From positions 46,924 to 110,923 of the forward strand of contig JBBRPE010000001.1 in assembly GCA_038228545.1 (NCBI GenBank): a stretch of 64,000 nt of DNA, written 5' to 3'. Numbering within the stretch: the stretch's first letter is position 1; each line of letters begins with the position of its first letter. Below the pieces are notes generated by a model, which searched no databases, was not told where the DNA came from, and saw nothing but the letters and a program-made list of their open reading frames with translations. The stretch is from Minisyncoccia bacterium (GTDB lineage: Bacteria; Patescibacteriota; Minisyncoccia; Phycocordibacterales; Phycocordibacteraceae). Of this stretch, positions 799-60,986 are shown one piece after another. The translations under genes were made by a program, and so were the position numbers.

Positions 799-1236
799 TT
801 ATTTCTTCGCCGGTTTTGTGTACAAATGTTTTTCTGCAGGACAACGGCATGGCAGACAATGGTCAACGCAGTAGTCCTTTCCATAATCATACGTAAGCTC
901 CTCACCCATCTTTATATTCTTCTTTGAAAAAATGAAGATTTTTCCCTTTGCTATCTCCGGCTCGCAATTTGGTTTACAAGAGTGATTGATATATCCAGCT
1001 TTATTCCACCTCGGCTTACCGTCGATGGTTTTGCTCTTCGTAATCTCAAACAGATATCTGCTTCTACTGGTGTAGGCTTCCTTTTCCGAAATCACGCGTC
1101 CGATATATTCAATAACGCACTTCCCTTTTGGAATGTCCTCACCGGCAAAAAGACCGAGACCGGCCAATGAACGATGTACCCGGAGGTCGTAACCTCCGGG
1201 TGTGTATTTAGATGCGCGAACGACTTTCTTCTTCAT
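799..1236 (-). CDS. SET-domain protein (protein-lysine methyltransferase-like)
   Basis: Motifs NHSCKPNC and ELTYDYG, plus a C-terminal Cys cluster (post-SET). Confidence 0.8.
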   Translation of the reverse strand: MKKKVVRASKYTPGGYDLRVHRSLAGLGLFAGEDIPKGKCVIEYIGRVISEKEAYTSRSRYLFEITKSKTIDGKPRWNKAGYINHSCKPNCEPEIAKGKIFIFSKKNIKMGEELTYDYGKDYCVDHCLPCRCPAEKHLYTKPAKK

Positions 1237-3082: not shown

Positions 3083-4327
3083 ATGAACTCCCTGCCGCAC
3101 GCTCGCCGTGGCAGTATGAACGCGATGCTTGTATCGCGTTTGGATGACGAGCTCTCTACTAATTCGTCCGTTTCAATCATAGAAGTGGTTGAGCTTCTTA
3201 TCGCGCAAGCTCACGCAACAGGTGCTTCCGATATTCACATTGACCCCTCTCGCGAATATTTACGCACCAGGCTTCGCATTGATGGCGTATTAGTAGATTA
3301 CCGTCAGCTTCCAAAAAACATACAGCACGAGATAATATCTCGCATTAAAATTCTTTCGGCGCTCCGTACTGATGAACACCAGATGCCTCAAGATGGCCGA
3401 TTTCGGTACGAGTTGCCTGACGGCGCTTTCATAGATATGCGTGTATCCATTGCACCAACATATTACGGAGAAAATGTGGTACTCCGTCTCCTCACCAATA
3501 ATCATGAAGAATTCACTTTAAGTCGTCTCGGCTTTAATCAAAGTGACATCCGTAGGATAGAGCAGGCGCTTAAGAAACAGAATGGAATGATACTTGCGAC
3601 TGGGCCCACAGGCTCAGGTAAAACAACAACGCTCTATACACTGCTTAAGAGTCTAAACACTCCTGATGTATCAATTATTACTATCGAAGACCCTATCGAA
3701 TACTCCGTTGATTCCATTGAGCAAATACAGGTTAACGCCCGTACCGGACTTACTTTTGCTACAGGTCTTCGTTCCATACTTCGACAGGATCCGGACATCA
3801 TCATGGTCGGTGAAATTCGCGACGCAGAAACCGCTAACATAGCCGTGAACACTGCCCTTACCGGCCACCTTCTTCTTTCGACTCTTCACACAAATGACGC
3901 TGCGACGACACTTCCGCGACTTACCGATATGGGTATCGATCCCTATCTCGTCGCTTCAACCATTACGATAGCCATCGGGCAGCGCCTTGTCCGCCGTATT
4001 TGTGAGTCCTGTGCGGAAACAATTTCCGTGACGCCCGCGCTTGCCGAATCGCTTGCGCATCTTGATATACATCCAGGAGAGCCATTCCGTCGCACTATCG
4101 GATGTGATGCCTGCGGTGGAACAGGCTACGTAGGTCGTCTTTCTATTAATGAAGTACTCGTGGCCGATGCGGACATCCAAGAAGCAATATTACGAAAAGC
4201 ATCTCCTGTCGAGCTTCGTCGTATTGCGGTTGCGAACGGTATGACCACGATGATTACTGACGCTCTCACGAAAGCCAGAGCTGGAGAGACCTCTCTTAAA
4301 GAGATGCTTCGTGTAATTCATGACTAA
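3083..4327 (+). CDS. pilB: type IV pilus assembly ATPase PilB/GspE
   Basis: Walker A GPTGSGKTT and a GspE-type CxxC tetracysteine near the C-terminus (CESC...CDAC). Confidence 0.9.
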   Translation: MNSLPHARRGSMNAMLVSRLDDELSTNSSVSIIEVVELLIAQAHATGASDIHIDPSREYLRTRLRIDGVLVDYRQLPKNIQHEIISRIKILSALRTDEHQMPQDGRFRYELPDGAFIDMRVSIAPTYYGENVVLRLLTNNHEEFTLSRLGFNQSDIRRIEQALKKQNGMILATGPTGSGKTTTLYTLLKSLNTPDVSIITIEDPIEYSVDSIEQIQVNARTGLTFATGLRSILRQDPDIIMVGEIRDAETANIAVNTALTGHLLLSTLHTNDAATTLPRLTDMGIDPYLVASTITIAIGQRLVRRICESCAETISVTPALAESLAHLDIHPGEPFRRTIGCDACGGTGYVGRLSINEVLVADADIQEAILRKASPVELRRIAVANGMTTMITDALTKARAGETSLKEMLRVIHD

Positions 4328-5435
4328 CACCCTAAGCGCTATTCTGTTACAACGTCTAAAAGACTCCGTTAGGTATATATATCGCCCACGGTTCAACCTT
4401 CGTGACCAAATCTTTCTCGCTAAACGGCTCTCATTCCTAACGAAAGCGGGAATACCTCTTATAGAAGCAGTCACCATGCTACAAGGCCAGACACGATCGA
4501 AAACAAAGGCGGCAATGTTAGGACGTATCGGTACGGACTTGGCAGGTGGCCACTATCTAGCAACCTGTTTGGTCCGTACACAAGACGTCTTTGGAGATTT
4601 CGGTATTAATCTTATTCGGGTCGGCGAATCAAGCGGTATTCTTACACAGAATCTGACCTATCTTGCGGATGAATTGGGTAAACGACACCTACTTCGCACC
4701 AAAGTGCTCAGTGCACTTCTCTACCCCGCGTTCATTACCGTAGCTACACTCGGGATAACATCTATGCTTACGGTCTACATCTTTCCGAAAATAATGCCGA
4801 TATTTGTATCACTCCACGTACCCCTGCCACTCACTACACGAATGCTTATTGGGGTATCGAATTACCTCCGCAGCTGGGGTCTGCTTACACTATTCGTTGT
4901 CATTATTCTAGGGATAGGATGTACCATTATTCGAAATCGTCTTGAAATCATCCGTTACGTAACGGATACAGCCCTTTTGCATCTACCCTTTGCCGCGCCA
5001 ATTGCGAGAAGTTATAACCTGGCAAATTTTTGTAGGACCCTTGGTCTTATGCTTAATTCTGGCGTCCCGGTAGCTTCTGCCGTGACCATAACCGCGGAAA
5101 CAACACCAAACCGAGTGTACCGAGTTCAGTATCATCGTCTTGCAGAACATGTTACGCGAGGCGAGCCCTTGGCACGTAGTCTGGCATCTGCTCCAGACCT
5201 ATTCCCCGACACACTAACGCACATGATAGCCGTTGGGGAAACCTCTGGCAGTCTTGCTCAATCACTTACGTACCTTGCCGAATTATATGAACTCGAAGTG
5301 GAAGAAGGTACAAAAAATCTCTCTTCATCAATAGAACCGATACTCATGCTCGTAATGGGATTGCTCGTAGGAATTATTGCTGTCTCCGTTATTACTCCTA
5401 TTTATGAAATTACTCAGCACCTTTCACCGCGATAA
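4320..5435 (+). CDS. pilC: type IV pilus inner-membrane platform protein PilC/GspF
   Basis: Duplicated GspF-type domains with 3-4 TM segments. Overlaps the pilB stop. Confidence 0.85.
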   Translation: MTNTLSAILLQRLKDSVRYIYRPRFNLRDQIFLAKRLSFLTKAGIPLIEAVTMLQGQTRSKTKAAMLGRIGTDLAGGHYLATCLVRTQDVFGDFGINLIRVGESSGILTQNLTYLADELGKRHLLRTKVLSALLYPAFITVATLGITSMLTVYIFPKIMPIFVSLHVPLPLTTRMLIGVSNYLRSWGLLTLFVVIILGIGCTIIRNRLEIIRYVTDTALLHLPFAAPIARSYNLANFCRTLGLMLNSGVPVASAVTITAETTPNRVYRVQYHRLAEHVTRGEPLARSLASAPDLFPDTLTHMIAVGETSGSLAQSLTYLAELYELEVEEGTKNLSSSIEPILMLVMGLLVGIIAVSVITPIYEITQHLSPR

Positions 5436-5439
5436 TGGT

Positions 5440-5916
5440 ATGGAAAGTCCTATAGATAGAATACATCGCGCCTTTACGCTTATTGAAACACTCGTAGTAC
5501 TTGGCCTTATCGGTGCGCTTATGACGCTCAGCCTACTACTTTCCATGGACGTGTATCGATCTACTGCATTTCGTTCGACACGAGCAGTGTTGGTGAGTAC
5601 GCTCACGACGGCGCGTTCCCGTTCGCTTGCAAACTTAAACCAGTCACCACATGGCGTATGTTCATTACCCCCAGATCTTATTCTTTTTGAGGGAGAAATG
5701 TACGACCCAGCTTCACCTATGAATGAACGTATACCCGGAAACCCTGCGGTACAGCTTACTTCGGTTAATGATTTCTTCGATTGCACAAAAGGAGTAGGGA
5801 TTATTTTTAGCCAGCTTGAAGCGACAACGAGCGAGAACGACATGATTGTCCTAACGGAACGTGGGCACAAAAATACAGATGTACGAGTGAACGAAGAGGG
5901 CACGATTCTTTGGTAG
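5440..5916 (+). CDS. pseudopilin with prepilin-type N-terminal cleavage/methylation domain
   Basis: RAFTLIETLVVLGLIGALM. Internal start chosen because the track ORF 5377.. overlaps pilC. Confidence 0.7.
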   Translation: MESPIDRIHRAFTLIETLVVLGLIGALMTLSLLLSMDVYRSTAFRSTRAVLVSTLTTARSRSLANLNQSPHGVCSLPPDLILFEGEMYDPASPMNERIPGNPAVQLTSVNDFFDCTKGVGIIFSQLEATTSENDMIVLTERGHKNTDVRVNEEGTILW

Positions 5917-5920
5917 TAGC

Positions 5921-7423
5921 ATGACGGCGTCTTTCCATACAAGACCAGTACCTAAAGGCAACAGTATCATCGAGCTTGTTATTGCTTTCGCTGTACTGAC
6001 ACTTACTCTTACTGCTGTCATCTCCGTATTCTTCGGAAACCAATCTGCTGCAGTAGACACAGAAACAGCAACTGAAGCACTGGCGCGTGCTCATGCGATG
6101 CTGGAATATGAACGCACATTTACCTCGAACGCGTATCTTTCCGCCAGTTCTACGAACAACCTAGTCACGCGTGGTGGACTCACCTACACAGAAACGATGT
6201 CGATTGAAGACATGACTCCGTGTGAAAAACAGGCTACCGCGAGTGTTGCCTGGAATACCAGTACACTCCGTCCACAAAAGACGGAAGTTACCACCTATCT
6301 TGTGGACATTCTCTCCACCCTTCTTCTTGGTGGCGATTGCGATACCGCTACAACAACTGGTTCATGGGCGTTGCCGAATCTGTTTGCCTCCGACACAGTT
6401 TCGCCTGCAAAGGCTACTGCCCTCGACGTGCTCGATGGCACTGTATACATGGCCGTTGACACGGCACCTTTTCTGAAAATAGCGTCAGGGGCGGGAGCGA
6501 CGCTTCACCAGAGTGGCGGACTTTTTATACAGTTTACAACCGGATTCAACCCTGGAAATAAGATAAATTCTATTGATGTATTCCGGTGGACGAATCCGGC
6601 ATCGGGAGACGTTAGGCGCTATATATTCGCAACCATGAACACAAGTGCGAACCAGCTCAAGATTATAGATGTTACGGTTCCGTCGGCCCCACTCATTACA
6701 GCGACGCTCTCCCTATCTTCATGTGTAACCGGCTCTTTCCCCCAAGGATGGTATGCAGTTGCCTACGGTAACCGTCTCTACCTTGTTACGCGCGAGACAG
6801 CCGGACCCGAATTGCATATTATCGATATTTCTACACCATCGTCCCCAACCGAGCTCTCTGTAGGAAGTGCCGGCTGTAGGGGTTTCCAATTGAACGATAC
6901 GGTAGAGGAGATGGTTGTGCGTGATCAACCGGTGAATGGTATTCGAAGAAGGTATGCCTATCTCGCAACTGATGAGTCTAATCGTGAACTCCGCGTGCTT
7001 GATGTTACTGATCCCTACAACGTCACGGAAGTACAAGATGTGGATTTACCAGGAATTCAAGACGGCTCAAGCTTGTATGTCATAGGTTCGAGATTATATT
7101 TCGGCCGGTTAAACGTTTCTACCGGACCCGAATTATACGTATTTGACGTGACGTCTCCTGTATCCGGACTTATCCAACTTGCAACACAGGAAATAGGTGC
7201 AGACGTACTTTCGATTCGTGTCGAAAACGGTTTAGCATTTCTCGGAACCCGAAAAAATAATAAGGAGCTCCAGGTATGGAACATTCAGGACCTTTCGCAC
7301 ATAACTAACGTATCCACGTTCCATGTCCCAAATTTAGTATCTCGAGGGGTCGATTATGAAGCCCCGTATCTATTCGTAGGGGCGCAGACAAATCCGACCC
7401 TGCAGGTGCTGTATACCCGCTAG
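5921..7423 (+). CDS. pilin-like protein fused to an LVIVD-repeat beta-propeller (candidate pilus-tip adhesin / minor pilin)
   Basis: N-terminal KGNSIIELVIAFAVLTL (prepilin-like, Glu at +5). At least five repeats of the form x-EL-hIhDhSxPxxP (ELHIIDISTPSSP, ELRVLDVTDPYNV, ELYVFDVTSPVSG, ELQVWNIQDLSHI, QLKIIDVTVPSAP) match the LVIVD repeat family. Confidence 0.65.
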   Translation: MTASFHTRPVPKGNSIIELVIAFAVLTLTLTAVISVFFGNQSAAVDTETATEALARAHAMLEYERTFTSNAYLSASSTNNLVTRGGLTYTETMSIEDMTPCEKQATASVAWNTSTLRPQKTEVTTYLVDILSTLLLGGDCDTATTTGSWALPNLFASDTVSPAKATALDVLDGTVYMAVDTAPFLKIASGAGATLHQSGGLFIQFTTGFNPGNKINSIDVFRWTNPASGDVRRYIFATMNTSANQLKIIDVTVPSAPLITATLSLSSCVTGSFPQGWYAVAYGNRLYLVTRETAGPELHIIDISTPSSPTELSVGSAGCRGFQLNDTVEEMVVRDQPVNGIRRRYAYLATDESNRELRVLDVTDPYNVTEVQDVDLPGIQDGSSLYVIGSRLYFGRLNVSTGPELYVFDVTSPVSGLIQLATQEIGADVLSIRVENGLAFLGTRKNNKELQVWNIQDLSHITNVSTFHVPNLVSRGVDYEAPYLFVGAQTNPTLQVLYTR

Positions 7424-7436
7424 CAAGAAATGGTAT

Positions 7437-7883
7437 ATGCCTAATCGCGCCTTTACTCTCATAGAAACGATTATCTATATAGCGCTTTTCGGCTTACTCA
7501 TGACCGGAGTACTAACGAGCGTCTATGGACTATTAGAGAATAGTGACCGGCTTTCCGTACACACTACGACTGAGGACGAGGGGACATTCGTTCTCCGCAA
7601 ATTAGAATGGATTTTCGAGAATACCGCGAGCGTACAGAGTCCTTCCTCGGGGTATGGTGAAAAGCTCTCGGTCACACTCACTGACGGCACACATGTAACC
7701 ATAACAAAAACGGCGACTACTATTGGACTAACGAGAGGTACCGACATGACTCCAAACGCTCTCACGAGCGCAAATGTCACCGTACAGTCCCTGGGTTTCT
7801 ATATTTTGCCGGGAGGAGGTATTGAAGCATCTACAACTGTGGATGGAAGAATGTTTACAACTCGTTCGTATCTTCAAAAATAA
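7437..7883 (+). CDS. pseudopilin (prepilin-type N-terminus)
   Basis: MPNRAFTLIETIIYIALFGLLM. Confidence 0.75.
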   Translation: MPNRAFTLIETIIYIALFGLLMTGVLTSVYGLLENSDRLSVHTTTEDEGTFVLRKLEWIFENTASVQSPSSGYGEKLSVTLTDGTHVTITKTATTIGLTRGTDMTPNALTSANVTVQSLGFYILPGGGIEASTTVDGRMFTTRSYLQK

Positions 7884-7885
7884 AT

Positions 7886-8296
7886 ATGTTTAAGAATTCG
7901 AAACCTCGTGGATTCATAGCACTTATGTCAGCACTTATTATTGCTACGGTTCTTTTACTTATAGCAACTGGTGGAAGCCTTTCCGGTTTCTATGGGCGTA
8001 TGGATTCACTTGATTTCGAAGCAAAGGAACGGAGCGCTTGGCTTGCACGTGCGTGCGTTGAGCATACTCTTCAAGCGCTTGCACATGATCCGTCTTACAC
8101 AGCACTCGCGACAACCTCGCTTACAGAGGCCGATTCCTGTTACACCGGTCTTATTAAACGAGACGGCACTCCACCTAACGAGCTGTATTCTTTTAAAACT
8201 CGTGCCACTGTCATGAGTGCGTACACAATCTATACAGTTTCCGTACGAGGTTCTGATCTATCCGTGCAGTCTTTTACTGAGTTACCCACATTCTGA
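7886..8296 (+). CDS. minor pilin-like protein (PilX/GspK-like N-terminal helix lacking Glu at +5)
   Basis: RGFIALMSALIIATVLLLIA hydrophobic N-terminus. Sits within the pilin gene cluster. Confidence 0.45.
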   Translation: MFKNSKPRGFIALMSALIIATVLLLIATGGSLSGFYGRMDSLDFEAKERSAWLARACVEHTLQALAHDPSYTALATTSLTEADSCYTGLIKRDGTPPNELYSFKTRATVMSAYTIYTVSVRGSDLSVQSFTELPTF

Positions 8297-8362: not shown

Positions 8363-8836
8363 ATGAAACCTGCTCGCCAAGGTTATGTCTCTCGCATTCC
8401 TCGTGGATTCACTCTTATCGAAATTCTCGTTGTTATAGGTATCATCGCAATTCTTGCGGCCATTGTTATCATCGCCATTAATCCGGCGCGTCAGTTTAAG
8501 CAAGCACATGACAGTCAGCGTGTTTCAAATGTAAACGCAATTCTCAACGGTATAGGTCAAAATATTGCCGACCACAAAGGAGTCTTTACGTGCGCAGTAG
8601 CACTTCCGACAACTGCAACCGTTATTAGTAGCACCGGACTTGATGTACGCTCGTGTCTCGTCCCCACTTACCTTCCAGAGCTTCCGGTTGATCCAACCAC
8701 AGGCACTGCCTGTGTAGATGCGGCATGCACCGCAGGTTACACGACAGGCTACACGGTCCTCCAGGACTCAGTTACAGGACGTGTGACCGTGAGCGCCGTT
8801 GGTGAAGTAACACCAGCAATAAGCGTCACGCGTTAA
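8363..8836 (+). CDS. type IVa major pilin
   Basis: PRGFTLIEILVVIGIIAILAAIV, a canonical class III signal with G^FTLIE. The C-terminal region carries several Cys (likely disulfide-bonded D-region). Confidence 0.8.
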   Translation: MKPARQGYVSRIPRGFTLIEILVVIGIIAILAAIVIIAINPARQFKQAHDSQRVSNVNAILNGIGQNIADHKGVFTCAVALPTTATVISSTGLDVRSCLVPTYLPELPVDPTTGTACVDAACTAGYTTGYTVLQDSVTGRVTVSAVGEVTPAISVTR

Positions 8837-8852
8837 CGTAGGATTTTGCACG

Positions 8853-8893
8853 CATATGGCCCGCCTCTGGCGGGCCATATGTATTTCTATATT
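8853..8893 (+). terminator. intrinsic terminator after the major pilin gene
   Basis: catatggcccgcc-tct-ggcgggccatatg hairpin followed by tatttctatatt. Confidence 0.6.
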
Positions 8894-8972
8894 CCGGTCT
8901 TAGTCTCTGTCTATTTCTCCCTCCCCCTCTGATTCTGATTCTTTTAAGGTTTAAGTTTTCTTTTTCGTAATT

Positions 8973-9018
8973 CCACTATCCCCATCTTGTGACGGTCGTC
9001 ACAAGATGGGGATAGTGG
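8973..9018. repeat. long perfect palindrome, copy 2 (ccactatccccatcttgtgacg-gt-cgtcacaagatggggatagtgg)
   Basis: 22-nt arms. Lies immediately upstream of the regulator gene at 9036. Confidence 0.8.
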
Positions 9019-9035
9019 AGCGGTAAGATGACCGC

Positions 9036-9620
9036 ATGGGAAAGCTCGAAGCACAGGCCAAGCACGAACGGCGTCTCGGAGAGTTCGAACGCGCCATACT
9101 CGGCGTTACTGCTGCAGCCGGAATAGTCGCTGTAGGCGTTATCGCACCAAAACTTCTTTCATTAGTTCGGTACATACCTCAAAGTAACTCAAAATTTCGC
9201 TATCGAACGAAATCAACACTCACCAAGCTTGCGACACGAGGACTAATTACTTTCAGTAGCGAAGACGGGAAACGATACGCACGTTTAACTGAAAAGGGTG
9301 AGAAGCACATGGAGTATGAGACGCAGAAGCTCGTACTTACGCAGAATGCACGCAAACGCTGGGATAAGCGATGGCGGATAGTTACATTTGATATCCCAGA
9401 AGCTCGCAGACGAACTCGCACCCAGCTCCGTTACACCATGCAGGAAGCAGGATTCTATCGACTTCAGAATAGTGTATGGGTACTTCCGTATGACTGCGAA
9501 GACTTGATTACCCTTCTTAAGGCGGACCTTAAGGTCGGCAAAGACGTTCTTTACATTATTGCGGAGCATATCGAACACGATGCCGAGCTCCGCTCTCACT
9601 TCAACCTCCCAGCTGCCTAG
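9036..9620 (+). CDS. membrane-anchored winged-helix regulator with C-terminal Cas2/VapD-like (PaaX_C-like) domain
   Basis: TM helix ILGVTAAAGIVAVGVIAP. wHTH LTKLATRGLITFSSEDGKRYARLTEKG. C-terminal WRIVTFDIPEARRRTRTQLRYTMQEAGFYRLQNSVWVLPY resembles the Cas2 core fold. No CRISPR array in the window. Confidence 0.5.
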   Translation: MGKLEAQAKHERRLGEFERAILGVTAAAGIVAVGVIAPKLLSLVRYIPQSNSKFRYRTKSTLTKLATRGLITFSSEDGKRYARLTEKGEKHMEYETQKLVLTQNARKRWDKRWRIVTFDIPEARRRTRTQLRYTMQEAGFYRLQNSVWVLPYDCEDLITLLKADLKVGKDVLYIIAEHIEHDAELRSHFNLPAA

Positions 9621-23414: not shown

Positions 23415-24210
23415 TTACTAAGGCCAGGCCTTGGTATACTGCTCGCGTGTACCAAGGCCTGGCCTTAGTAATAACCCGTTGCTCGCATGGGAATGAGGAT
23501 AATCCAGTTCGGAGTAAATGAATGGTATCACTGCTACAGCCGTGGTGTGGATAAGCGCATGATTTTTCAAGAAGCCGCAGACTATCAGCGCTTCCAAATG
23601 CTTCTCTATGTCTGCAACAGTACTATTCCGATTCATCTAAGTGAGATAGCGAAACGTCCCCAAGGCCTGGCCTTGGGAGAGGTCATCAGCGAAATACGAG
23701 GTGAGCAGTTCGTGGATATTGGTGCCTATGCACTTATGCCGAATCACCATCATCTCTTGCTGCGTGAACGAGTCGAGGGAGGCACAACAGCTTTCATGCA
23801 GAAATTGGGTACAGCCTATACGATGTACTTCAACAAGAAGTATGAGCGCACCGGATCTCTCTTTTCCGGAAAGTTCAAGGCGAAGCATGTGGCCACAGAT
23901 GAATATTTCGCACGTATCGTGAATTATATTCATGGGAACCCCGCAGAACTACATGAGCCGGGATGGAAGAATGGATTGATACGAGACGAGAGGAGGCTTA
24001 AACAGTTTCTTTCTTCATATCGTTTCTCAAGTTTGCCTGACCATGATACTGAAGATGAAAGAGTGGAAGGTCATCTAATAAACAAGAACTCTGTTCTCGA
24101 ACTTATCGGATACACTCCAACATTTGAAACACTTATGGAAGATGCATATACGTTTCAACGCGACGTGGACTTCGATTGACCGTATACCAAGGCCTGGCCT
24201 TGGTATACGG
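23415..24210 (+). mobile_element. RAYT (REP-associated tyrosine transposase) gene flanked by REP-like palindromes
   Basis: A compound hairpin at 23415-23472 (two inverted copies of ttactaaggccaggccttggta), an internal ccaaggcctggccttgg at ~23660, and a perfect 31-nt palindrome ccgtataccaaggcctggccttggtatacgg at 24180-24210. Confidence 0.7.
23487..24179 (+). CDS. IS200/IS605-like HuH Y1 transposase of the RAYT subgroup
   Basis: HuH motif LMPNHHHLLL and the Tyr motif NYIHGNPAE. Confidence 0.8.
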   Translation: MGMRIIQFGVNEWYHCYSRGVDKRMIFQEAADYQRFQMLLYVCNSTIPIHLSEIAKRPQGLALGEVISEIRGEQFVDIGAYALMPNHHHLLLRERVEGGTTAFMQKLGTAYTMYFNKKYERTGSLFSGKFKAKHVATDEYFARIVNYIHGNPAELHEPGWKNGLIRDERRLKQFLSSYRFSSLPDHDTEDERVEGHLINKNSVLELIGYTPTFETLMEDAYTFQRDVDFD

Positions 24211-24241: not shown

Positions 24242-25312
24242 TTAGTAGGCGTCGGAACGGGTCTGGGTGTCACCTCGGAAGACGCGATGTAGGTAGAAGT
24301 TATATACAAGGACTATCGGAAATAGGGGCCCGAGTCCAAAGAGCATAAACTCAAGTGTCTTTCTGCTCGACGCGGCGTCGTAAATAGTGAGCGAAGGCGG
24401 AATGATGTACGGAAAGACACCGACCAGCATACCGAGCATAGCGAGCACGAATATGCCCAGGCAGAGATTGTGAAGTGCAGGGCCCGTGCTTTTTTTAATG
24501 ACGAGAACAATCAGCCAGAGTGAGAGCACTCCCATGCATGCCGTTATGCCAAAAAGCAGATAATTGCTCGGGTACATGGTCCAACGCTCAAAGAAAAGAT
24601 AGCTCTTACTCGGAAGTAGGAGCGTCGCGCCAAGTAATGCGCCACCGGTCACAGCTCCTGCGATAAGAATACGCATGAAGGTGTTTGGTGACGCTTCTTT
24701 CCCTGCTTTCTTAATCAGATATGCGTACCCAACGAAGACGTAACTCATCAGCACACCAATAGTAATAAGGAATGTGAGTGGCGTAATGAAATCGAATGCA
24801 GTACCGGAAAATTCCCCAGTGGTAACGGAAATACCCGAGAGCAGTCCGCCGACAGCGAGCCCCTGCCCCACACCAGCCAAGAGCGAACCGAATCCAAATA
24901 AGCGACTCCACAACTTCTTGTTCGTGCCGACAGCATGGAATTCAAATGACACTGCTCGCAGAATAAGTCCGAAGAGCATCGTCATGACCGGAATATAAAG
25001 TGCAGAAAGAATAATCCCGTACGCAGTCGGGAATGCGCCAAAAAGCATACCGCCTGCTATCACGAGCCAGGTTTCGTTTGCGTCCCATATCGGACCGAGC
25101 GTGTGCATCATCGCCGCACGTTGCTCTTCTTTCTGCGGAAGTAAGGAAAGTATGCCGAGACCGAGGTCCGCACCATCAAGCAAGATGTAGAGTGCAACCG
25201 CAAGACCTATTGCGCCGAACCACGCGAGTGCAAGCATCGGATCGGTAAGGTACTGCATCATACGCTTGGAAGTGTGCTGGTAAGGTCGGGACCTTTCTTC
25301 ACTATTTTCCAC
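24242..25312 (-). CDS. cydB: cytochrome bd ubiquinol oxidase subunit II
   Basis: CydB-like ~9 TM protein immediately downstream of cydA. Confidence 0.85.
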   Translation of the reverse strand: MENSEERSRPYQHTSKRMMQYLTDPMLALAWFGAIGLAVALYILLDGADLGLGILSLLPQKEEQRAAMMHTLGPIWDANETWLVIAGGMLFGAFPTAYGIILSALYIPVMTMLFGLILRAVSFEFHAVGTNKKLWSRLFGFGSLLAGVGQGLAVGGLLSGISVTTGEFSGTAFDFITPLTFLITIGVLMSYVFVGYAYLIKKAGKEASPNTFMRILIAGAVTGGALLGATLLLPSKSYLFFERWTMYPSNYLLFGITACMGVLSLWLIVLVIKKSTGPALHNLCLGIFVLAMLGMLVGVFPYIIPPSLTIYDAASSRKTLEFMLFGLGPLFPIVLVYNFYLHRVFRGDTQTRSDAY

Positions 25313-26661
25313 GTGAAGTAAACGAAGAGGAAACCAAATACCAGATAGATGGACGTAAAGATGCCTGTCGTTATCGCGACCGCGCTCGCATTCAGTCCGC
25401 TCGAGAGGCCGTGCTCGGTACGCAGCAAGTGATACACCACCCAGGGCTGACGGCCGATTTCACGCACCATCCATCCAGCTTCGGTTGCGATGAATCCAAG
25501 CGGTGTACCAAAGATAAAAAGCCACCAGAACAGCTTGTCTCCTCCCTGACTGGCGCGGAGCGGCACACCCGGCAGTGCTTCACCTGTTTTTAAGTAGCCA
25601 CGCTTCCAGTACCACACACCAAGAATCATAAGAAGGAACATGCAAACTCCGCACGCAACCATGATACGGAAGGAGTAGAAGACGAGAACGTCGTCGATAA
25701 GCGTCGGACGGTCGTTGGTAGGAAAATCATTCAGTCCCGGCACAGTACCGGTTGAAGAGTGTGTGGTAAGCAGAGAAAGAACGACCGGTAGTTTAATTTC
25801 GAACGCGTTCCCGTTATTTTGTGCGTTCGGCCAGGCGACGAGCGCCCAGTCGGCTCCCGTGCCCGGAAGGTTTGTATCCCAGTGCAGTTCTGTTGCCGCG
25901 AGCTTTGCCGGCTGATACTTCGCAATCGTCGTGCCCGAGAGGTCGCCGAGCCCCATCTGGAGTGGGGTCACGATAATAGCGAGCGCAAGACAATACTTGA
26001 ATGTCGTAAGAAAGAATTCACGCGTAGATTCCGGAACCGTGCGACGCATAAGTACAAGAGCGCAGATGCCAAGCATCATGAAGAGTGTTGCCTCTATACA
26101 TGCGACCCACATATGCAGGAACGACACGAGGGTATCGGGATTAAAGATAGCGACGAGGTAATCGGTCACGACGAGCTTTCCGTTCTGAACTTCAACGCCT
26201 ATAGGCACTTGCATCCAGGAGTTTGCCGCCATAATCCAGAACGCTGAAAGCGTCGCGCCCACGAATATCATCGCGTTCGAGAAGAAGTGCATCCACTTAT
26301 TCACTTTATTCCAACCGAAGACAAAGATGCCGAGGAAGGCTGCTTCGAGTGCAAACGCGACCGTGGACTCGAATCCGAGAATATTACCGAAGAAGTCCCC
26401 TGCCGCCGTCGAGAATTTTGCCCAATTCGTGCCGAATTCAAATTCGAGTGGAAAGCCGGTGGCTGTCCCAATGGCGAACGTCAGTATGAAAATCTTGGTC
26501 CAGAACTTGAGCTGACGATAATACGTTTCTTTCTTGGTCTTGAGCCACATCGCTTCCATCGTGAGCATGTAGAGCGAAAGGCCAATAGACATAAGCGGCC
26601 ACAATATATGGAACGCGGCAGTATCGCCGAACTGTAAGCGAGAGATAGTAAGTACATCCAT
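25258..26661 (-). CDS. cydA: cytochrome bd ubiquinol oxidase subunit I
   Basis: CydA family; Q-loop region and heme ligands. Confidence 0.9.
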   Translation of the reverse strand: MDVLTISRLQFGDTAAFHILWPLMSIGLSLYMLTMEAMWLKTKKETYYRQLKFWTKIFILTFAIGTATGFPLEFEFGTNWAKFSTAAGDFFGNILGFESTVAFALEAAFLGIFVFGWNKVNKWMHFFSNAMIFVGATLSAFWIMAANSWMQVPIGVEVQNGKLVVTDYLVAIFNPDTLVSFLHMWVACIEATLFMMLGICALVLMRRTVPESTREFFLTTFKYCLALAIIVTPLQMGLGDLSGTTIAKYQPAKLAATELHWDTNLPGTGADWALVAWPNAQNNGNAFEIKLPVVLSLLTTHSSTGTVPGLNDFPTNDRPTLIDDVLVFYSFRIMVACGVCMFLLMILGVWYWKRGYLKTGEALPGVPLRASQGGDKLFWWLFIFGTPLGFIATEAGWMVREIGRQPWVVYHLLRTEHGLSSGLNASAVAITTGIFTSIYLVFGFLFVYFTWKIVKKGPDLTSTLPSV

Positions 26662-33657: not shown

Positions 33658-34380
33658 ATGGCGCGTGCTATCATTTTTTGCATGAAGCAGCCATTTTCCG
33701 TACGCGACCTTTTTATACCAGCCGCAATCATACTCGCTGGTATCATCCTCGCGTGCGCTATCTACGTCATACGAATTAGGCACACGGTAGTAACCGGCAC
33801 CGGAAACCCCGAGGCTGTACACGCTGTCACAACTACTGACCACATCATTGGAAATCCAAGCGCTCCGGTAGCTATTATTGAGTACGCAGATATCGACAGC
33901 TCATTCAGTAAGTCGTTCCAGATGACTATGGAACAACTCATGACAGGATACGCAAGCGGCGGAAAAGTGGTGTGGGTATATCGTCATTTCCCAGTGACAC
34001 AGCTACACCCGAATTCAGCTACGGATGCGCTTGCGGCTGAGTGTGCTGGCTCGCTTTCAACTCCTATCACCTTCTTCCATTTCATAGACGCAATGCAGAC
34101 ACTTGCTCCTGGAGATAACGAGTTTAACCCCAACCAATACGAATCAGTGGTGGCACAGTTCAGCATCAATAACGACTCGTTCAAGAAATGTATGACAGCT
34201 GGCTCGTTTACCAAGAAAATTCACGACGACTACGATAACGCCCTTGCTTCTGGTGCAACCGGTTCTCCTTTTGTGATTCTTCTTATTCATGGACAGAAGC
34301 CGGTTCCAATAAACGGCGCACTTCCCTACACATCGATGAAAAAGATTATTGACGATGCAATTACGAAGGCAGGAACATAG
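33658..34380 (+). CDS. DsbA-like thioredoxin-fold protein with the CxxC site replaced by SSFS; membrane-anchored
   Basis: VAIIEYADIDSSFSKSF aligns to the EFSDFQCPFCARF region of DsbA. KVVWVYRHFPVTQLHPNSATDALAAECAG matches the DSBA family core. Confidence 0.65.
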   Translation: MARAIIFCMKQPFSVRDLFIPAAIILAGIILACAIYVIRIRHTVVTGTGNPEAVHAVTTTDHIIGNPSAPVAIIEYADIDSSFSKSFQMTMEQLMTGYASGGKVVWVYRHFPVTQLHPNSATDALAAECAGSLSTPITFFHFIDAMQTLAPGDNEFNPNQYESVVAQFSINNDSFKKCMTAGSFTKKIHDDYDNALASGATGSPFVILLIHGQKPVPINGALPYTSMKKIIDDAITKAGT

Positions 34381-43702: not shown

Positions 43703-43987
43703 ACCCCTGTACTCCTGAAGCGTACCACTGGCAGTACATGGTGCAAGCAAGACCGATGTGCGTATACTGGGATAAGTACCACTCCCAAAGCGCTGCGGTA
43801 GACGCGAGTATGGGAAGCGAGGTTGACCACGTGGAAGGATCTTTGCAACTGAGCCGTTGTCTGTGGCCACGGATTGTAACAGCTCTGCGTAGAGCAAAGC
43901 GGCAGCATTGGTGACATGGGTCACCCGCGAGACCGAAGTGCACCGAAGTATCCTCTTAGACCAACGCGACTCGCTACGATTAAAGAA

Positions 43988-44022
43988 GGCCGCCCCAACC
44001 CCGGGGCGGCCATTTCTTTTAT
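43988..44022. terminator. bidirectional intrinsic terminator
   Basis: ggccgcccc-aacccc-ggggcggcc followed by atttctttt. Confidence 0.6.
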
Positions 44023-44045
44023 CCTCGACAAATAGGACCAAAAGC

Positions 44046-44609
44046 TCAGAACACGTAGCTACGTTTGAGTTTAATGCGAAGCTTCTTATGTTCAGGAATA
44101 ACACTCCCAACGAGCGCCCAGAACTTTGCAGAGTGGTTGTGATGCACGGTGTGTGCAAGCTCGTGGACCACCAGATAATCGGTGAGCTCACTCGGCAAAT
44201 GCACGATGCGATAATTAAAAGAAAGATTTCCCTTCTGGGAACAGCTTCCCCATCGACTTTTCTGATTCCGTATTGAAATGCTCCCGTGAGTGAATCCGTG
44301 CGCGGTAGAGAAGTGACGTACACGCTCGATCACAAGCGTACGAGCAGATTTCTGTGCCTCTATGTATGCCTTTGACCCGCGACGCAGTCGCGGGAGCTGT
44401 TCTTTCGGATTCTTCGCCTCCCGTTCTGCACGCTTTTGAAATTTCTTCACTGCGGCTTCTATCCACAGCGATTTTGTCCGTACGAATCGCTCAACTGCCG
44501 CGGTGCTCACAAAGCGTGGCTTCGTAACAACAACTCGTCCGTCCGTATGAATAGTTATCCGCGCGCTAAGCGCCCGTGCGGATTCCTTAATTTCGTAAGT
44601 GTACGCCAC
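44046..44609 (-). CDS. YgjP-like (DUF45/M48-type) zinc metallohydrolase
   Basis: VVHELAHTVHHNHSAKFW. Confidence 0.75.
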   Translation of the reverse strand: MAYTYEIKESARALSARITIHTDGRVVVTKPRFVSTAAVERFVRTKSLWIEAAVKKFQKRAEREAKNPKEQLPRLRRGSKAYIEAQKSARTLVIERVRHFSTAHGFTHGSISIRNQKSRWGSCSQKGNLSFNYRIVHLPSELTDYLVVHELAHTVHHNHSAKFWALVGSVIPEHKKLRIKLKRSYVF

Positions 44610-47399: not shown

Positions 47400-47765
47400 C
47401 TAGTTCCTTGGCTTAGTTTTCACCTTCGGTTTCGCGACTTTCGGTTTTTTGGGTTTTGGAAGCGGCACGTTCGCGGCGGTAATACGGACCAATTCAGCTA
47501 GCCACTCGCGGTTATCAATAAGGTCCGCGTCTATTTCCATCGAGGGCTTCGCGCCCTTATAGGCAGTTCCCTCTTTATACGCATCCCCGACAAATTCCTT
47601 CCCTGGCTCCGTAATTTTCATATACAGTGTGTCGTCACACACAAGCGCCACCACCCGCCCATCGGCATAGAGCGCATACTCCCCAAACATCTTCCGCGCG
47701 GCTACTCCTTGAGCTCCACGGAGCTGGTCGAGGATGTATTCAATGGTCTCCGCTCGTGTTGCCAT
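47400..47765 (-). CDS. TfoX/Sxy N-terminal domain protein (competence regulator-like) with Lys/Pro-rich tail
   Basis: ARKMFGEYALYADGRVVALVCDDTLYMKITE. Confidence 0.7.
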   Translation of the reverse strand: MATRAETIEYILDQLRGAQGVAARKMFGEYALYADGRVVALVCDDTLYMKITEPGKEFVGDAYKEGTAYKGAKPSMEIDADLIDNREWLAELVRITAANVPLPKPKKPKVAKPKVKTKPRN

Positions 47766-47768
47766 ACC

Positions 47769-48764
47769 TTACGCCAGTAGTTGGGTAACGAGTGCGACCA
47801 TTTGGTCTTTCTTCTTCGGATTGCTTTCCGCAATAAGAAGTGTGAGCGCTGTAAGTGATGCCGGGTTTATGTTCCGGCCACCCTTCACTTTTGCCTTACG
47901 TAGAAACCAGACAAAGGCAAAAGCACCCGACCGTTTATTGCCGTCGGTAAATGGATGGTTCTTCACCATGAAATAGAGCAGATGCGCCGCTTTTTCCTCC
48001 GCAGTAGCGTATACGGGTTTCCCGCCAAATGACTGCATGACATTACCGACGATACCTTCGACGTTTCCTTCGCTACGTTCCTGGGCAAAAATATCGGTCG
48101 CTTCGCCCTTGTCGATAAGCTCGCTGCGCAAATGTACGATTGCATCTTTGAGCTCCGTACCCGAAAGCTTAATCGCTTTCTTGCTGGTACCGACTGCTTT
48201 CAGTGTTTCCTTGTCGTACGCATCGAGCGAAATCCACGTGCTAGAAAATTCCTTCACGAGCTCAAGGATACTCTTCGGATCAAGTGCAACATGTTCCGGT
48301 AAGAGTGCCTGGATATCGGCAACTGCCTTCATAAAGGCGTCGTAGTTCTTCCCTACCTGCTTGCGGTTTATCGTATAACCCTTGGTGATATGCTCCCGCA
48401 AGGTCTTAGTCGCCCAGACGCGGAAATTCGTACCAGTTACAGAACTAACTCGATACCCTACAGCAATGAGTACGTCCAGATTATAAAGTTTAACGTTTCT
48501 TGTGACCTGCCTTTTTCCCTCTTTCTGAACTTGTAAGAAATCCTTACAAGTTCCTTTTTGATTCAGCTCCTTATCCTTATAGATATTTCTCAAGTGTTGA
48601 GTGATGTTTTGTGGGGTTACGTCGAACATGGCCGCGATTTCCGCTTGAGTAGCCCACAGAGTTTCATGCGAAAAGTCACCCCGTAGTTCGAGGGCTCCGT
48701 TTTTCGCTTGATATATGACAACGCCCGCTTTCTTACCGTTCGACTTCATATTCCATTTTATCAC
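47769..48764 (-). CDS. Fic/Doc-family protein with N-terminal RhuM-like domain
   Basis: Doc-type motif HPFTDGNKRSGAFA near the C-terminus. The N-terminal ~200 aa resemble RhuM-family virulence/DNA-binding proteins. Confidence 0.7.
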   Translation of the reverse strand: MIKWNMKSNGKKAGVVIYQAKNGALELRGDFSHETLWATQAEIAAMFDVTPQNITQHLRNIYKDKELNQKGTCKDFLQVQKEGKRQVTRNVKLYNLDVLIAVGYRVSSVTGTNFRVWATKTLREHITKGYTINRKQVGKNYDAFMKAVADIQALLPEHVALDPKSILELVKEFSSTWISLDAYDKETLKAVGTSKKAIKLSGTELKDAIVHLRSELIDKGEATDIFAQERSEGNVEGIVGNVMQSFGGKPVYATAEEKAAHLLYFMVKNHPFTDGNKRSGAFAFVWFLRKAKVKGGRNINPASLTALTLLIAESNPKKKDQMVALVTQLLA

Positions 48765-57800: not shown

Positions 57801-59975
57801 TTACGCTTCCGTTTCTATCTCGATGTCGAGAGGCTCGATATCAAGCGCGAGACCACGGATCTGGTTAGTAAGCACCGAGAAGGACGCCGGTGTGCCTGCG
57901 TGAGACACTGGCTCGTTCTTAACGATGGCATCGAAGGTCGCGGAGCGGCCGGTGATGTCGTCTGACTTGATGGTGAGCATCTCGCGGAGCGTATATGCCG
58001 AACCGTAGCCGAGAAGCGCCCACACTTCCATTTCTCCGAAGCGCTGACCGCCGTTCTGCGCCTTACCTCCAAGCGGCTGCTGGGTGATGAGTGAGTACGG
58101 ACCGATAGAGCGCATGTGAATCTTGTCTTCCACCATGTGATGGAGTTTCAAGATGTACATGTAACCAACGGATACGGGCTGTGCAAACGCGGCACCAGTG
58201 TGACCGTCGTAGAGCTGCATCTTGCCCGAGCGAGCAAAGCCTGCGGCTTCGAGCTCGTCGCGGATTTCGTCTGCAGTCGCTCCTGCAAACGGAGGCACGA
58301 TAGCCTGGTAGCCGAGCGTATGCGCAGCAAGACCAAGGTGAAGCTCAAGAATCTGACCAAGGTTCATACGGGACGGGACACCGAGTGGTGTGAGAATCAC
58401 ATCTACCGGATTTCCGTTCTCGTCGTATGGCATGTCTTCAGCTGGAAGCACACGGGAGATAACACCCTTGTTTCCGTGACGGCCGGCGAGCTTGTCACCC
58501 ACCGATACGTTACGAACCTGCGCGACCGTAACAACAATCTTCTTGATGATGCCGGTCTCGAGTTGGTCGCCCTTCTCGCGTGAGAAGACACGAACACCGA
58601 TAACGCGACCGCGCTTGCCTCCTTCCATGCGAAGTGAGGTGTCCTTCACGTCCTTTGCCTTGTCTCCGAAGATGGAACGAAGAAGGCGCTCTTCCGGCGT
58701 CAGCTGGGTCTCACCCTTCGGCGTTACCTTACCGACGAGAATGTCTCCTGGACGAACTTCAGCACCGATGCGCACGACACCTTCCTCATCGAGGTTCTTA
58801 AGGCGGAGCTCACCGACGTTTGGAATGTCGTGGGTCGTCACTTCCGGTCCGAGCTTGGTGTCGCGAACGGCACACTCGAAGTCCTCGATGTGAACGGTAG
58901 TAAATTTGGATTCCTGAACGAGGCGCTCAGAAATGATGATTGCGTCCTCGTAGTTTGCACCGTTCCACGACATGAAGGCGACGCGTACGTTCTGTCCGAG
59001 TGCCATCTGGCCCTGGTCGGAAGACGAAGCGTCAGCGAGGATGTCGCCCTTCTTGACCTTGTCGCCAGTGTTAACTATCGGGCGCTGATTGAATGCTGAG
59101 TTCTGGTTTGTCTGAGTAAGTCCCTGAAGTTTATACTCGTGTGGCTTGTCCTTCGTCCCCTTAACGACAATCTTGCGAGCGTCAGCGTACGTGACTTCAC
59201 CTGATTCAAGAGCGATAACGAGGCGGCCAGTGTTGCGAGCGGCGTGCTCTTCAATGCCGGTTGCAACAAGTGGTGCCTCAGGAATGAGGACCGGTGTTGC
59301 CTGCTTCTGCATGTTTGAACCCATGAGTGCACGGTTGGACTCGTCGTGATCCATGAATGGAATCATTGCGGTTGCAGCGGAGAACATCTGGTAGGTCGAT
59401 GCGTCCATGAGTGTAATCTCCTCACGAGTAACGACCGCAGGCTCACCACCCTTACGGACTTCAATCTGGTCAGGAATGATGTGACCCTTCGCGTCTACGG
59501 GAGTAGCAGCATGCGCAATAGCGTGACCTTCTTCCTCGAGAGCGTTGTAATACTTCACCTCGTCGGTGACAACACCCTTCTTCACGGTTGCGTATGGCGT
59601 CTCGATAACGCCGAACTCGTTCGTGCGCGCATGAAGCGCGAGACGAAGGATAAGTCCGATGTTCTGACCTTCCGGTGTGTGAATTGGGCAGAGGCGACCG
59701 TAATGCGATGGATGTACGTCACGCACTTCGAAGCCGGCGCGTTCACGGGTGAGACCGCCTGGGCCAAGAGCTGAGAGGGTGCGCATGTTCTCAAGCTCAG
59801 CAAGAATGTTCTGCTGGTCCATGAACTGCGAGAGCTGGTTCGCGGTATAGAACTCGCGAACACTAGCCTGGAACGGACGAGGATTCACGAATGCCATTGG
59901 AAGAGCCGTCTCTGATTCAATAGTAGACATGCGGTCCTGGATATTGCGCTTCATGCGCGACATACCAACACGCAT
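57801..59975 (-). CDS. rpoB: DNA-directed RNA polymerase subunit beta, C-terminal ~2/3 (downstream of an in-frame TAG)
   Basis: Collinear with the RpoB rifampicin-cluster region through the C-terminus (SQFMDQ...RISALGPGGL...GHKG...). Confidence 0.9.
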   Translation of the reverse strand: MRVGMSRMKRNIQDRMSTIESETALPMAFVNPRPFQASVREFYTANQLSQFMDQQNILAELENMRTLSALGPGGLTRERAGFEVRDVHPSHYGRLCPIHTPEGQNIGLILRLALHARTNEFGVIETPYATVKKGVVTDEVKYYNALEEEGHAIAHAATPVDAKGHIIPDQIEVRKGGEPAVVTREEITLMDASTYQMFSAATAMIPFMDHDESNRALMGSNMQKQATPVLIPEAPLVATGIEEHAARNTGRLVIALESGEVTYADARKIVVKGTKDKPHEYKLQGLTQTNQNSAFNQRPIVNTGDKVKKGDILADASSSDQGQMALGQNVRVAFMSWNGANYEDAIIISERLVQESKFTTVHIEDFECAVRDTKLGPEVTTHDIPNVGELRLKNLDEEGVVRIGAEVRPGDILVGKVTPKGETQLTPEERLLRSIFGDKAKDVKDTSLRMEGGKRGRVIGVRVFSREKGDQLETGIIKKIVVTVAQVRNVSVGDKLAGRHGNKGVISRVLPAEDMPYDENGNPVDVILTPLGVPSRMNLGQILELHLGLAAHTLGYQAIVPPFAGATADEIRDELEAAGFARSGKMQLYDGHTGAAFAQPVSVGYMYILKLHHMVEDKIHMRSIGPYSLITQQPLGGKAQNGGQRFGEMEVWALLGYGSAYTLREMLTIKSDDITGRSATFDAIVKNEPVSHAGTPASFSVLTNQIRGLALDIEPLDIEIETEA

Positions 59976-60041: not shown

Positions 60042-60986
60042 CTATGCAGTCGGGTCAGTGTTGAGGCGAGCGATTTCTCCGACGATGCGAACGAGGTCCT
60101 CAAGGGTGAGGGTGCGGTCTTTGGCGAGGGTCTTCGGGTCGACAGCAAGACCAAAACGAGCGTTCAGGCGGTGACGTCCAACCTTAGAAAGGTCGTAGCG
60201 CTCTGGGGTGAAGAGTGCGTTTACATAGGACTTCGCGTTGTCTGGAGTTGCGAGGTCACCATCGCGCATGCGGCGGTGAATCTCAACGTATGCGTCGTCA
60301 ACGGAAGCGGCAGTGTCGTGCGCGAGTGTGGTCTCAAGAGCAGCAGTAGCGATGTCGTTACCAATGAACTTCTTAAGAATAGCTTCCTTAGTACCTGCAC
60401 CAAGAATGGTGAGAAGGTTCGTAACTGGGAACTTGCGCTTGCGGTCAATCTTTACGTAGATGGCGCCATCAGCTTCTGAATCGATTTCAATCCAAACACC
60501 GCGTGATGGGATAATCTTTGCGCCGAACATCTGGCGACCCTTCACTTCCTCAGAAATAAAGAATGCACCGAATGAGCGAGCGAGCTGCGGCACGATAGCG
60601 CGCTCAACACCCGACACAATAAATGAGCCGTGTGGGGTCATCATCGGAATGTCTGCAAGGAATATATCCTGTGTCTTCTCCGAGCCCATCGTCTTGTTAA
60701 GAAGCGTAACGGTAGCCTTAAGAGGCGCCTCGTAGGTACGCATGTTTTCGCGAGCCTCTTCTTCGGTACCCTTCGGGTCACCTATTTCGAAACCTTCGAA
60801 CTTGAGTTCGAACTTCTTGCCGGAATAATCAGGAATCGGCGAGAACTCCTTGAAGAGCTCCATGAGTCCGTCCTTCAGAAGCCAATCAAACGATTCGCGC
60901 TGGTGTCCCACGAGATCGGGGAACTCAACGAGCGGTGCACGGAAAGCTTTGAACGTCTTCTGCACAAGCGTTTTGGTTTTCGACAT
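60042..60986 (-). CDS. rpoB: DNA-directed RNA polymerase subunit beta, N-terminal ~314 aa (ends at in-frame TAG at 60042-60044)
   Basis: N-terminal RpoB (MSKTKTLVQKTFKAF...). Same reading frame as 57801..59975. Confidence 0.9.
   Translation of the reverse strand: MSKTKTLVQKTFKAFRAPLVEFPDLVGHQRESFDWLLKDGLMELFKEFSPIPDYSGKKFELKFEGFEIGDPKGTEEEARENMRTYEAPLKATVTLLNKTMGSEKTQDIFLADIPMMTPHGSFIVSGVERAIVPQLARSFGAFFISEEVKGRQMFGAKIIPSRGVWIEIDSEADGAIYVKIDRKRKFPVTNLLTILGAGTKEAILKKFIGNDIATAALETTLAHDTAASVDDAYVEIHRRMRDGDLATPDNAKSYVNALFTPERYDLSKVGRHRLNARFGLAVDPKTLAKDRTLTLEDLVRIVGEIARLNTDPTA

Follow-up and report, generated by a model that had tools for sequence, protein, structure and literature searches.

What does a protein that opens like a prepilin and continues as a beta-propeller do in the middle of a type IV pilus operon? 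The question is raised by a gene at positions 5921 to 7423 of a 64,000-nt stretch of the genome of a Minisyncoccia bacterium (contig JBBRPE010000001.1 of assembly GCA_038228545.1), the whole of this stretch being called the window below. An attached life on other microbes is presumed for Patescibacteria, in which type IV pili are nearly universal. Judging from its predicted fold, the gene product is a modular type IV minor pilin, i.e. a pilin module, a linker and a seven-bladed propeller, and it is hereafter referred to as the propeller pilin. The open reading frame (ORF) is present as the initial annotation had described it, its ATG lying 4 nt past the stop codon of an upstream pseudopilin gene, and it can be divided as follows, with the confidence of the structure model given as predicted local distance difference test (pLDDT).

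5921..7423, plus strand: modular minor pilin gene, 500 residues, ATG start
5921..5959, plus strand: leader peptide, residues 1-13, ending in KG; pLDDT <50 for residues 1-7
5960..6340, plus strand: pilin module, residues 14-140, with alpha1 helix, four-stranded sheet and GGDC linker
6341..7420, plus strand: LVIVD beta-propeller module, residues 141-500, predicted as seven-bladed

The N-terminus, MTASFHTRPVPKG/NSIIELVIAFAVLTLTLTAVISVFF (the slash marking the end of the leader, here and below), has the layout of a class III, or prepilin, signal, with Gly at position -1, Glu at +5 and a hydrophobic stretch, the tail of the leader reading PVPKG/N. Across an alignment of 76 homologues, position -1 is Gly in 72 sequences, position -2 is Lys or Arg in 49 and position +5 is Glu in 75. 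This near-invariance of Gly-1 and Glu+5 bears out the prepilin-like N-terminus that had been proposed from the sequence, and a prepilin peptidase probably removes the leader by cleaving behind Gly13. In addition, the Pfam model N_methyl (PF07963/IPR012902) is matched by 13 of the 76 homologues at E <= 0.01, and its cut-off is passed by the homologue P0137 (25.7 bits) and by the orthologue from locus L058 (24.8 bits).

A full-length AlphaFold2 model, built with the 76-sequence alignment, reached a mean pLDDT of 93.5 and a predicted template modelling score (pTM) of 0.88, this high pTM fitting a fixed arrangement of the domains. In the model, alpha1 is an unbroken 61-residue helix (residues 14-74), followed by a four-stranded antiparallel sheet at 78-128 and a short helix at 130-135, which sets the domain limits at 14-135 for the pilin module, 136-152 for the linker and 153-498 for the propeller. 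Structure prediction of the protein alone was the check proposed in the initial annotation, and it returned both the N-terminal pilin helix and the propeller. Using residues 1-150, for which a separate AlphaFold2 model has a pLDDT of 90.8, GspI-type chains account for 9 of the 50 Foldseek matches listed, ranks 1 to 5 included; they comprise 9a1f_R from the XcpGHIJK pseudopilus model (template modelling (TM) score of 0.70 on the target), EpsI (2ret and 3cfi) and XcpV (5vtm_V and 5bw0_B). Profile scans of the 76 family members (E <= 0.01) point the same way, with matches to ComGE in 36, PilV in 12, XpsI in 8 and gspI in 1, i.e. 57 together vs. 3 for GspH, none of them reaching the curated cut-offs, and the L058 orthologue also matches Pfam ComGE. 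Searched as a single sequence, the propeller pilin had no match in the PDB, and the family profile gave there only marginal alpha1 matches to geopilin. The evidence for the pilin type is thus sub-threshold yet mutually consistent, and the carrier module appears closest to the core minor pilins of the GspI/PilV/ComGE type.

Regarding the rest of the protein, the Pfam model LVIVD (PF08309/IPR013211) matches it at E = 3.6e-7 and 29.9 bits, against a curated cut-off of 20.2, IPR013211 being the LVIVD repeat (PMC10210494). The same model matches 60 of the 76 family members, and choice_anch_B weakly matches 59. Five clear motifs of the E-L-x-V-x-D-V-T type, namely QLKIIDVT at 245, ELHIIDIS at 297, ELRVLDVT at 356, ELYVFDVT at 404 and ELQVWNIQ at 449, are accompanied by two degenerate ones at 185 and 494, the spacing between repeats being 45-60 residues, so that the LVIVD beta-propeller of at least five repeats announced in the initial annotation is upheld. 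The AlphaFold2 model places about 28 strands over residues 153-498, i.e. seven four-stranded blades matching the seven repeats; the N-terminal strand at 153-158 would complete the last blade, as assigned from the strand count rather than from coordinates. Full-length Foldseek comparison with the PDB returned seven-bladed propellers of the WD40 type, the best being beta-TrCP (E = 5e-9, TM score of 0.61 on the target), together with the WD domain of KIF21A and BamB, at about 10% identity. Such generic WD40 neighbours confirm the fold class and carry no functional information.

The cysteine pattern of the family points to an extracellular protein that contains disulfides. Cys101 and Cys140, the latter in the GGDC linker, are invariant, and Cys268 and Cys319 occur both together in 35 sequences, are both missing from 41 and are never found singly. 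Through Cys101 and Cys140, the linker is probably fastened to the sheet. The DsbA-like gene encoded in the window (33658-34380) was counted as support for an extracellular location.

The propeller pilin gene does lie inside a type IV pilus operon, as had been stated initially, with PilB and PilC encoded upstream and pilins downstream. The counts of loci given with the genes below come from a scan of one genome per species, with a narrower family alignment as query, which yielded 68 related loci.

3083..4327, plus strand: PilB-type assembly ATPase (T2SSE), Pfam T2SSE E = 2.4e-117; upstream partner kept in 52 related loci
4320..5435, plus strand: PilC-type platform protein (T2SSF), Pfam T2SSF E = 7.9e-52, two repeats; kept in 55 loci
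5440..5916, plus strand: minor pilin 1, GspH/ComGD-like (HRA/FTLIE), N_methyl 22.4 bits, above the cut-off of 21.2
7437..7883, plus strand: minor pilin 3 (NRA/FTLIE), in the GspJ/PilW/ComGF slot, N_methyl 25.7 bits, above the cut-off
7886..8296, plus strand: minor pilin 4, without Glu5 (PRG/FIALMS), in the GspK/PilX/ComGG slot
8363..8836, plus strand: major pilin (PRG/FTLIE), N_methyl 31.7 bits and IV_pilin_GFxxxE 33.6 bits, both above their cut-offs
8852..8882, plus strand: terminator-like hairpin closing the operon, 14-bp stem with 9 G-C pairs, then a T-rich tail

Minor pilin 1 probably starts at the ATG at 5440 within an ORF spanning 5377..5916, and its best NCBIfam match is GspH at 3.9e-5, below the cut-off of that model. 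Minor pilin 3 is encoded directly 3' of the propeller pilin in 59 loci. In minor pilin 4, G9 is invariant, position +5 is hydrophobic in all 34 orthologues and C57 and C85 are invariant, one member out of the 34 weakly matching PilX_N in Pfam. Compared with the PDB, the profiles of minor pilins 3 and 4 gave alpha1 matches or chance matches only; their J and K identities are positional, i.e. based on gene order and on the missing Glu5 of minor pilin 4, sequence or fold support extending only to the H and I assignments. GspK is likewise described as lacking Glu5. Four minor pilins in this order, the last one devoid of Glu5, parallel GspH-I-J-K, FimU-PilV-W-X and ComGD-E-F-G, and the propeller pilin is encoded by the second gene of this four-gene H-I-J-K-like cassette. 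A regular-expression scan of the six frames of the window found no canonical class III signal motif outside the pilus operon. Directly past the operon terminator, at 9036-9620 on the plus strand, a PaaX_M/Cas2-like protein with an N-terminal membrane-like segment is encoded, homologues of which also stand beside the pilus operon in the loci L019 (9342-9959), L028 (6881-7471), L031 (9288-9878), L035 (2160-2735) and L060 (4324-4995); it may be a regulator linked to the pilus operon.

The fusion is by no means restricted to the window. About 60 of the 68 loci gave near-full-length matches starting at residue 12 or 13. The loci belong to Patescibacteria, save for a small number of outliers that match only in part or in the propeller alone and a single record that is probably mislabelled. 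Labelled lineages include Giovannoni-, Zambryski-, Lipton-, Taylor-, Kaiser-, Vogel-, Yanofsky- and Colwellbacteria, as well as Paceibacteria and Minisyncoccia, and the order PilB, PilC, minor pilin 1, propeller pilin, minor pilin 3, minor pilin 4 and major pilin is kept in about 55 of the 68 Patescibacteria species loci. A word-indexed search gave 225 matches, nearly all of 480-520 residues and at 97-100% coverage. When 1.84 billion representatives were searched exhaustively with the family profile, no fewer than 1,492 clusters (formed at 50% identity) came up at E <= 1e-30. Of the 150 best, some 140 are single end-to-end matches of 470-520 residues, i.e. the fused architecture. A few matches carry roughly 300 further residues C-terminal to the propeller, and a handful of very large proteins rich in LVIVD repeats match the family profile through the repeats alone. 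With the full-length architecture recurring in more than 200 homologues and in these 1,492 clusters, the joining of pilin and propeller cannot be put down to chance.

Within the 28 complete loci, median identities to the window proteins are 59% for PilB, 53% for the major pilin, which is the most conserved pilin of the operon, 47% for PilC, 37% for the propeller module, 33% for minor pilin 1 as for minor pilin 3, and 32% for both the pilin module of the propeller pilin and minor pilin 4. A hypervariable adhesin is rejected on this ground, the propeller being slightly better conserved than the neighbouring minor pilins.

Some members of the cassette depart from the common layout. Orthologues of the propeller pilin reach 670-810 residues in the loci L041 (5950-7965) and L049 (5935-8049) and in the homologues P0137, P0151 and P0185, with an uncharacterised extension past the propeller and a weak Big_3 match in P0185. 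Minor pilin 4 is enlarged to at least 1,000 residues in L021 (8032-12072), L022 (7861-12324, running off the locus end), L059 (8126-11125) and L033 (8116-9455, cut). In L056 (5668-7542), the longest ORF containing the propeller pilin orthologue opens with a GIY-YIG nuclease domain (E = 5.7e-13), for which the in-frame continuation of an upstream gene, or the insertion of a gene resembling homing endonucleases, is the probable explanation. In L005, minor pilin 3 (7402-8013) and the major pilin (8802-9389) share odd N-termini, G/LTPALSLVLLPAFLL and G/FTPALSLVLLPAFLL, instead of FTLIE, possibly as the result of a frameshift, of a repeat or of recombination between pilin genes.

As for what the propeller is there to do, the answer that we consider probable, largely by analogy, is that the propeller pilin is a core minor pilin of the pilus tip covalently carrying a ligand-binding propeller, i.e. 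a functional analogue of PilY1 fused in cis. It would act as the second of four minor pilins, between the GspH-like protein on one side and the J-slot and Glu5-less K-slot proteins on the other, and the four would form a priming complex ending up at the pilus tip, in the manner of GspHIJK, FimU-PilVWX and ComGD-GG; a tip complex of four minor pilins is common to type IVa pili (T4aP), the type II secretion system (T2SS) and Com pili (PMC12153270). Since a propeller of about 40 kDa could not be packed into the filament body, the tip is the only place that would fit, and modelling of PilB from Streptococcus sanguinis similarly led to the prediction that a bulky module could be accommodated nowhere but at the tip (Raynaud et al., 2021; PMC8179133). 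Once there, the propeller would serve as a ligand-binding head, its most likely role being to attach the patescibacterial cell to the surface of a host or partner cell. In Nanosynbacter lyticus TM7x, efficient binding to the host and fitness in competition both depend on PilX2, a minor pilin bearing a beta-propeller, whereas filament extrusion and competence do not (PMC11623550). Besides, a vWA domain is present in minor pilin 4 of L021 and L059 (1,000-1,350 residues), which makes it a second modular pilin in the tip cassette; vWA being a classical adhesion module, its presence on a K-slot pilin shows the tip complex serving as a carrier. A tip head is thus favoured because size excludes the filament body, because the carrier is a core minor pilin and because PilY1, PilX2 and the vWA pilins offer precedents. 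The tip adhesin evoked in the initial annotation accordingly remains plausible by analogy with modular pilins, PilY1 and PilX2, though it is inferred from such likenesses only.

Several points weigh against a ligand-binding pilin of the tip. The argument for function is anatomical and comparative, with cleavage, incorporation into the filament, location at the tip and a ligand all being predictions. The propeller pilin itself stays below the gathering cut-off of N_methyl (12.1 vs. 21.2 bits), its matches to GspI, PilV, XpsI and ComGE are all far below the curated NCBIfam cut-offs, and the Foldseek E-values of the pilin module are marginal, at 7.7e-3 and above. No gene for a prepilin peptidase (PilD), PilT, PilMNO or ComEC-type protein was seen among the larger ORFs scanned in the 64-kb window, a result which, over 64,000 nt, says little about the whole genome. 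Conservation is alike on the top and bottom loop faces of the propeller, which is not hypervariable, unlike the usual determinant of host specificity, and such uniform conservation fits a conserved ligand or a role in priming or capping as well as it fits host recognition.

The conserved ligand can be worked into a broader proposal, which is put forward tentatively and may well turn out otherwise. In Paceibacteria (Parcubacteria), the PilY1 function would have been permanently fused to the GspI/PilV minor pilin, one and the same polypeptide nucleating the tip and recognising the partner. As the propeller is conserved across orders, it would then recognise a broadly shared component of the envelope, e.g. 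a cell-wall glycan. If true, a general determinant of attachment would have been found for the first time in the largest uncultivated class of Patescibacteria.

Uniform conservation is also where the main rival to a ligand-binding head takes its strength. The propeller could be a purely structural cap, like the C-terminal domain of PilY1, which would seed the four-pilin tip complex, stabilise it or prevent complete retraction, with no external ligand involved. Strict synteny and the fairly uniform conservation of the propeller over Paceibacteria lineages with presumably different partners speak for such a cap, the most conserved loops of the propeller (RETAGPE at 291-297, DLPGxQD at 375-381 and FPQGW at 272-277) could contact other minor pilins, and PilY1 together with minor pilins primes T4aP assembly according to work cited in PMC11623550. 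Yet the TM7x PilX2 is dispensable for filament extrusion and required for efficient host binding, the tip complexes of Com and T2SS assemble without any such domain, and an exposed 40-kDa domain at the tip is well placed for ligands. A role limited to priming or capping is therefore deemed unlikely, although it is retained as the main rival, and priming and ligand binding are not mutually exclusive.

Another possibility, close to the initial annotation, which spoke of a competence-type pilus and of a DNA-binding module, is that the propeller catches DNA outside the cell so that it can be taken up. Patescibacteria are believed to rely on nucleic acids imported from their surroundings, family members show a weak resemblance to ComGE and a TfoX_N protein is encoded in the window. 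The TfoX-like and Fic/Doc genes, mentioned alongside the pilus at the outset, are as follows.

47400-47765, minus strand: TfoX_N-only protein, 121 residues, adjoining the RhuM and Fic gene
47769-48764, minus strand: RhuM and Fic-domain protein, about 40 kb from the pilus operon

They are thus present, but a link with the pilus is unsupported, as they stand about 40 kb away on the opposite strand among unrelated genes, and the window showed no competence genes. Nor is a competence-type pilus supported, as the gene order differs from that of comG, the major pilin coming last, and all matches to ComG models fall below their cut-offs. Above all, the propeller is acidic in 76 of 76 members, with a mean net charge of -12 (range -2 to -29) and a mean isoelectric point of 4.8 (4.1-6.1), and acidity extends to the globular parts of each of the five operon pilins, whereas known DNA capture by pili relies on electropositive surfaces, located at the ComGD-ComGF interface and not on ComGE. 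Mutants of TM7x in T4P-2, a type IV pilus, moreover keep wild-type competence. DNA binding by the propeller is not supported by these data, and a DNA receptor appears improbable.

It is highly improbable, too, that the propeller pilin never polymerises and that its N-terminal helix is a mere membrane anchor for an LVIVD propeller displayed at the cell surface. LVIVD repeats have been described as repeats of cell-surface proteins (PMC10210494) and the shortfall of the N_methyl score would agree with such an anchor, but Gly-1 and Glu+5 are almost invariant, the N-terminal module adopts a predicted GspI-type pilin fold rather than a bare transmembrane helix, and the gene keeps a fixed slot inside the minor-pilin cassette in about 55 loci.

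Finally, a propeller acting as a hydrolase or lyase on the envelope of the partner and delivered by the pilus is hardly credible, since, even if E297 and E356 are invariant, H299 and D250 nearly so, some beta-propellers are enzymes and one family member weakly matches methanethiol oxidase, the invariant acidic residues belong to the E-L-x-V-x-D motif of successive blades instead of one pocket, scans of the propeller pilin and of its family gave no significant match to an enzyme family, and the PDB neighbours are WD40 propellers of the scaffold type.

Away from the pilus operon, other features of the window deserve a mention. The gene rpoB is split by a single in-frame TAG at 60042-60044 (minus strand) in a conserved stretch (NTDPTA, stop, PVDFDHLGFRRVR), giving one ORF at 60042..60986 (314 residues, Rpb2 domains 1-2) and another at 57801..59975 (724 residues, domains 3-7); the TAG may stem from faulty sequencing or assembly, be a variant present in the population or be read through. 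Subunits I and II of a cytochrome bd oxidase are encoded at 24242-26661 on the minus strand (Pfam E = 5e-146 and 4e-75), in a group of bacteria usually described as devoid of respiration. An IS200-like Y1 transposase domain (23487-24179, plus strand, E = 4.4e-9) lies between a gene for an FAD-linked oxidase and cydAB. The window also encodes a small bacterial SET-domain protein of 145 residues (799-1236, minus strand, Pfam SET E = 2.9e-24) and a protein of 1,204 residues (40709-44323, minus strand), whose sole Pfam match is to LCAT-type lipases/acyltransferases over residues 648-919, the other 900 residues or so being without a match.

Returning to the tip head, the propeller pilin family supplies, for the class Paceibacteria, a concrete candidate for the head of the pilus tip that is both conserved and confidently predicted in structure, and residues 141-500 give domain limits suited to expression and ligand screening. 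To our knowledge, the molecules of first contact in Patescibacteria are known for one Saccharibacterium only, through PilX2. More generally, the universal tip complex of four minor pilins can gain function by direct fusion, on an I-type pilin here and, in relatives, on the K-slot pilin bearing vWA. Current concepts of type IV filaments are left unchanged.

Compared with known systems, the combination of a pilin with LVIVD repeats is not new, and the family, conserved though uncharacterised, belongs to the recognised class of modular pilins. Modular pilins were defined by Raynaud et al. (2021; PMC8179133), in whose Dataset S1 30 proteins (8+8+7+4+1+1+1) combine IPR012902 with 1-13 downstream copies of IPR013211 and whose text mentions an 860-residue example from Falkowbacteria with a 'motif of unknown function'. 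The propeller pilin agrees with their definition, with a complete pilin module, a short linker and a separate module that is not specific to type IV pili. Like PilB (pilin and vWA) and PilC (pilin and lectin) from S. sanguinis, it has its pilin module at the N-terminus, followed by the short linker and then by the bulky functional module. The LVIVD class was only counted in that study, whereas the fold, the genomic context, the GspI/PilV/ComGE identity of the carrier, its fixed slot among the four minor pilins throughout Paceibacteria and the extent of the family are brought here; no paper treating this family turned up when full texts were searched for LVIVD in combination with pilin.

The surface proteins of the LVIVD-repeat or choice-of-anchor B type (PF08309, TIGR04312) have the repeat family in common with the propeller pilin, but they use other anchors, i.e. 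a Sec signal peptide and sorting signals, and often contain many more repeats. Closer by lineage, PilX2 of TM7x is likewise a patescibacterial minor pilin with a C-terminal seven-bladed beta-propeller; going by its description, it is set apart by RCC1 repeats and by having no predicted PilD signal peptide, vs. LVIVD repeats and a canonical Gly-1/Glu+5 here, and no Pfam match to RCC1 was found in the propeller pilin or in its 76 homologues.

PilY1/PilC of diderm T4aP is a beta-propeller shown at the tip by four core minor pilins, as is proposed for the propeller pilin, but it is not itself a pilin, has its own signal peptide and associates non-covalently, whereas the propeller would here be fused in cis to the PilV equivalent. 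The PilY1 domain (PF05567/IPR008707) has no match in the propeller pilin at E <= 1 and none in the 76 homologues at E <= 0.01, and the sequence of the propeller pilin contains no D.D.[DN] anywhere, i.e. no DxDxD calcium-binding motif of the PilY1 type.

The Com pilus (type IVd, T4dP) has four minor pilins, like the operon described here, but follows the order comGA-GB-GC-GD-GE-GF-GG, with the major pilin third, whereas it comes last in the present operon. The closest counterparts remain GspI/XcpV/EpsI from T2SS, PilV from T4aP and ComGE from Com, which are the best structural neighbours and occupy the same second slot of an H-I-J-K-like cassette; these are proteins of about 100-140 residues without an extra domain, whereas the propeller pilin reaches 500 residues and carries a propeller.

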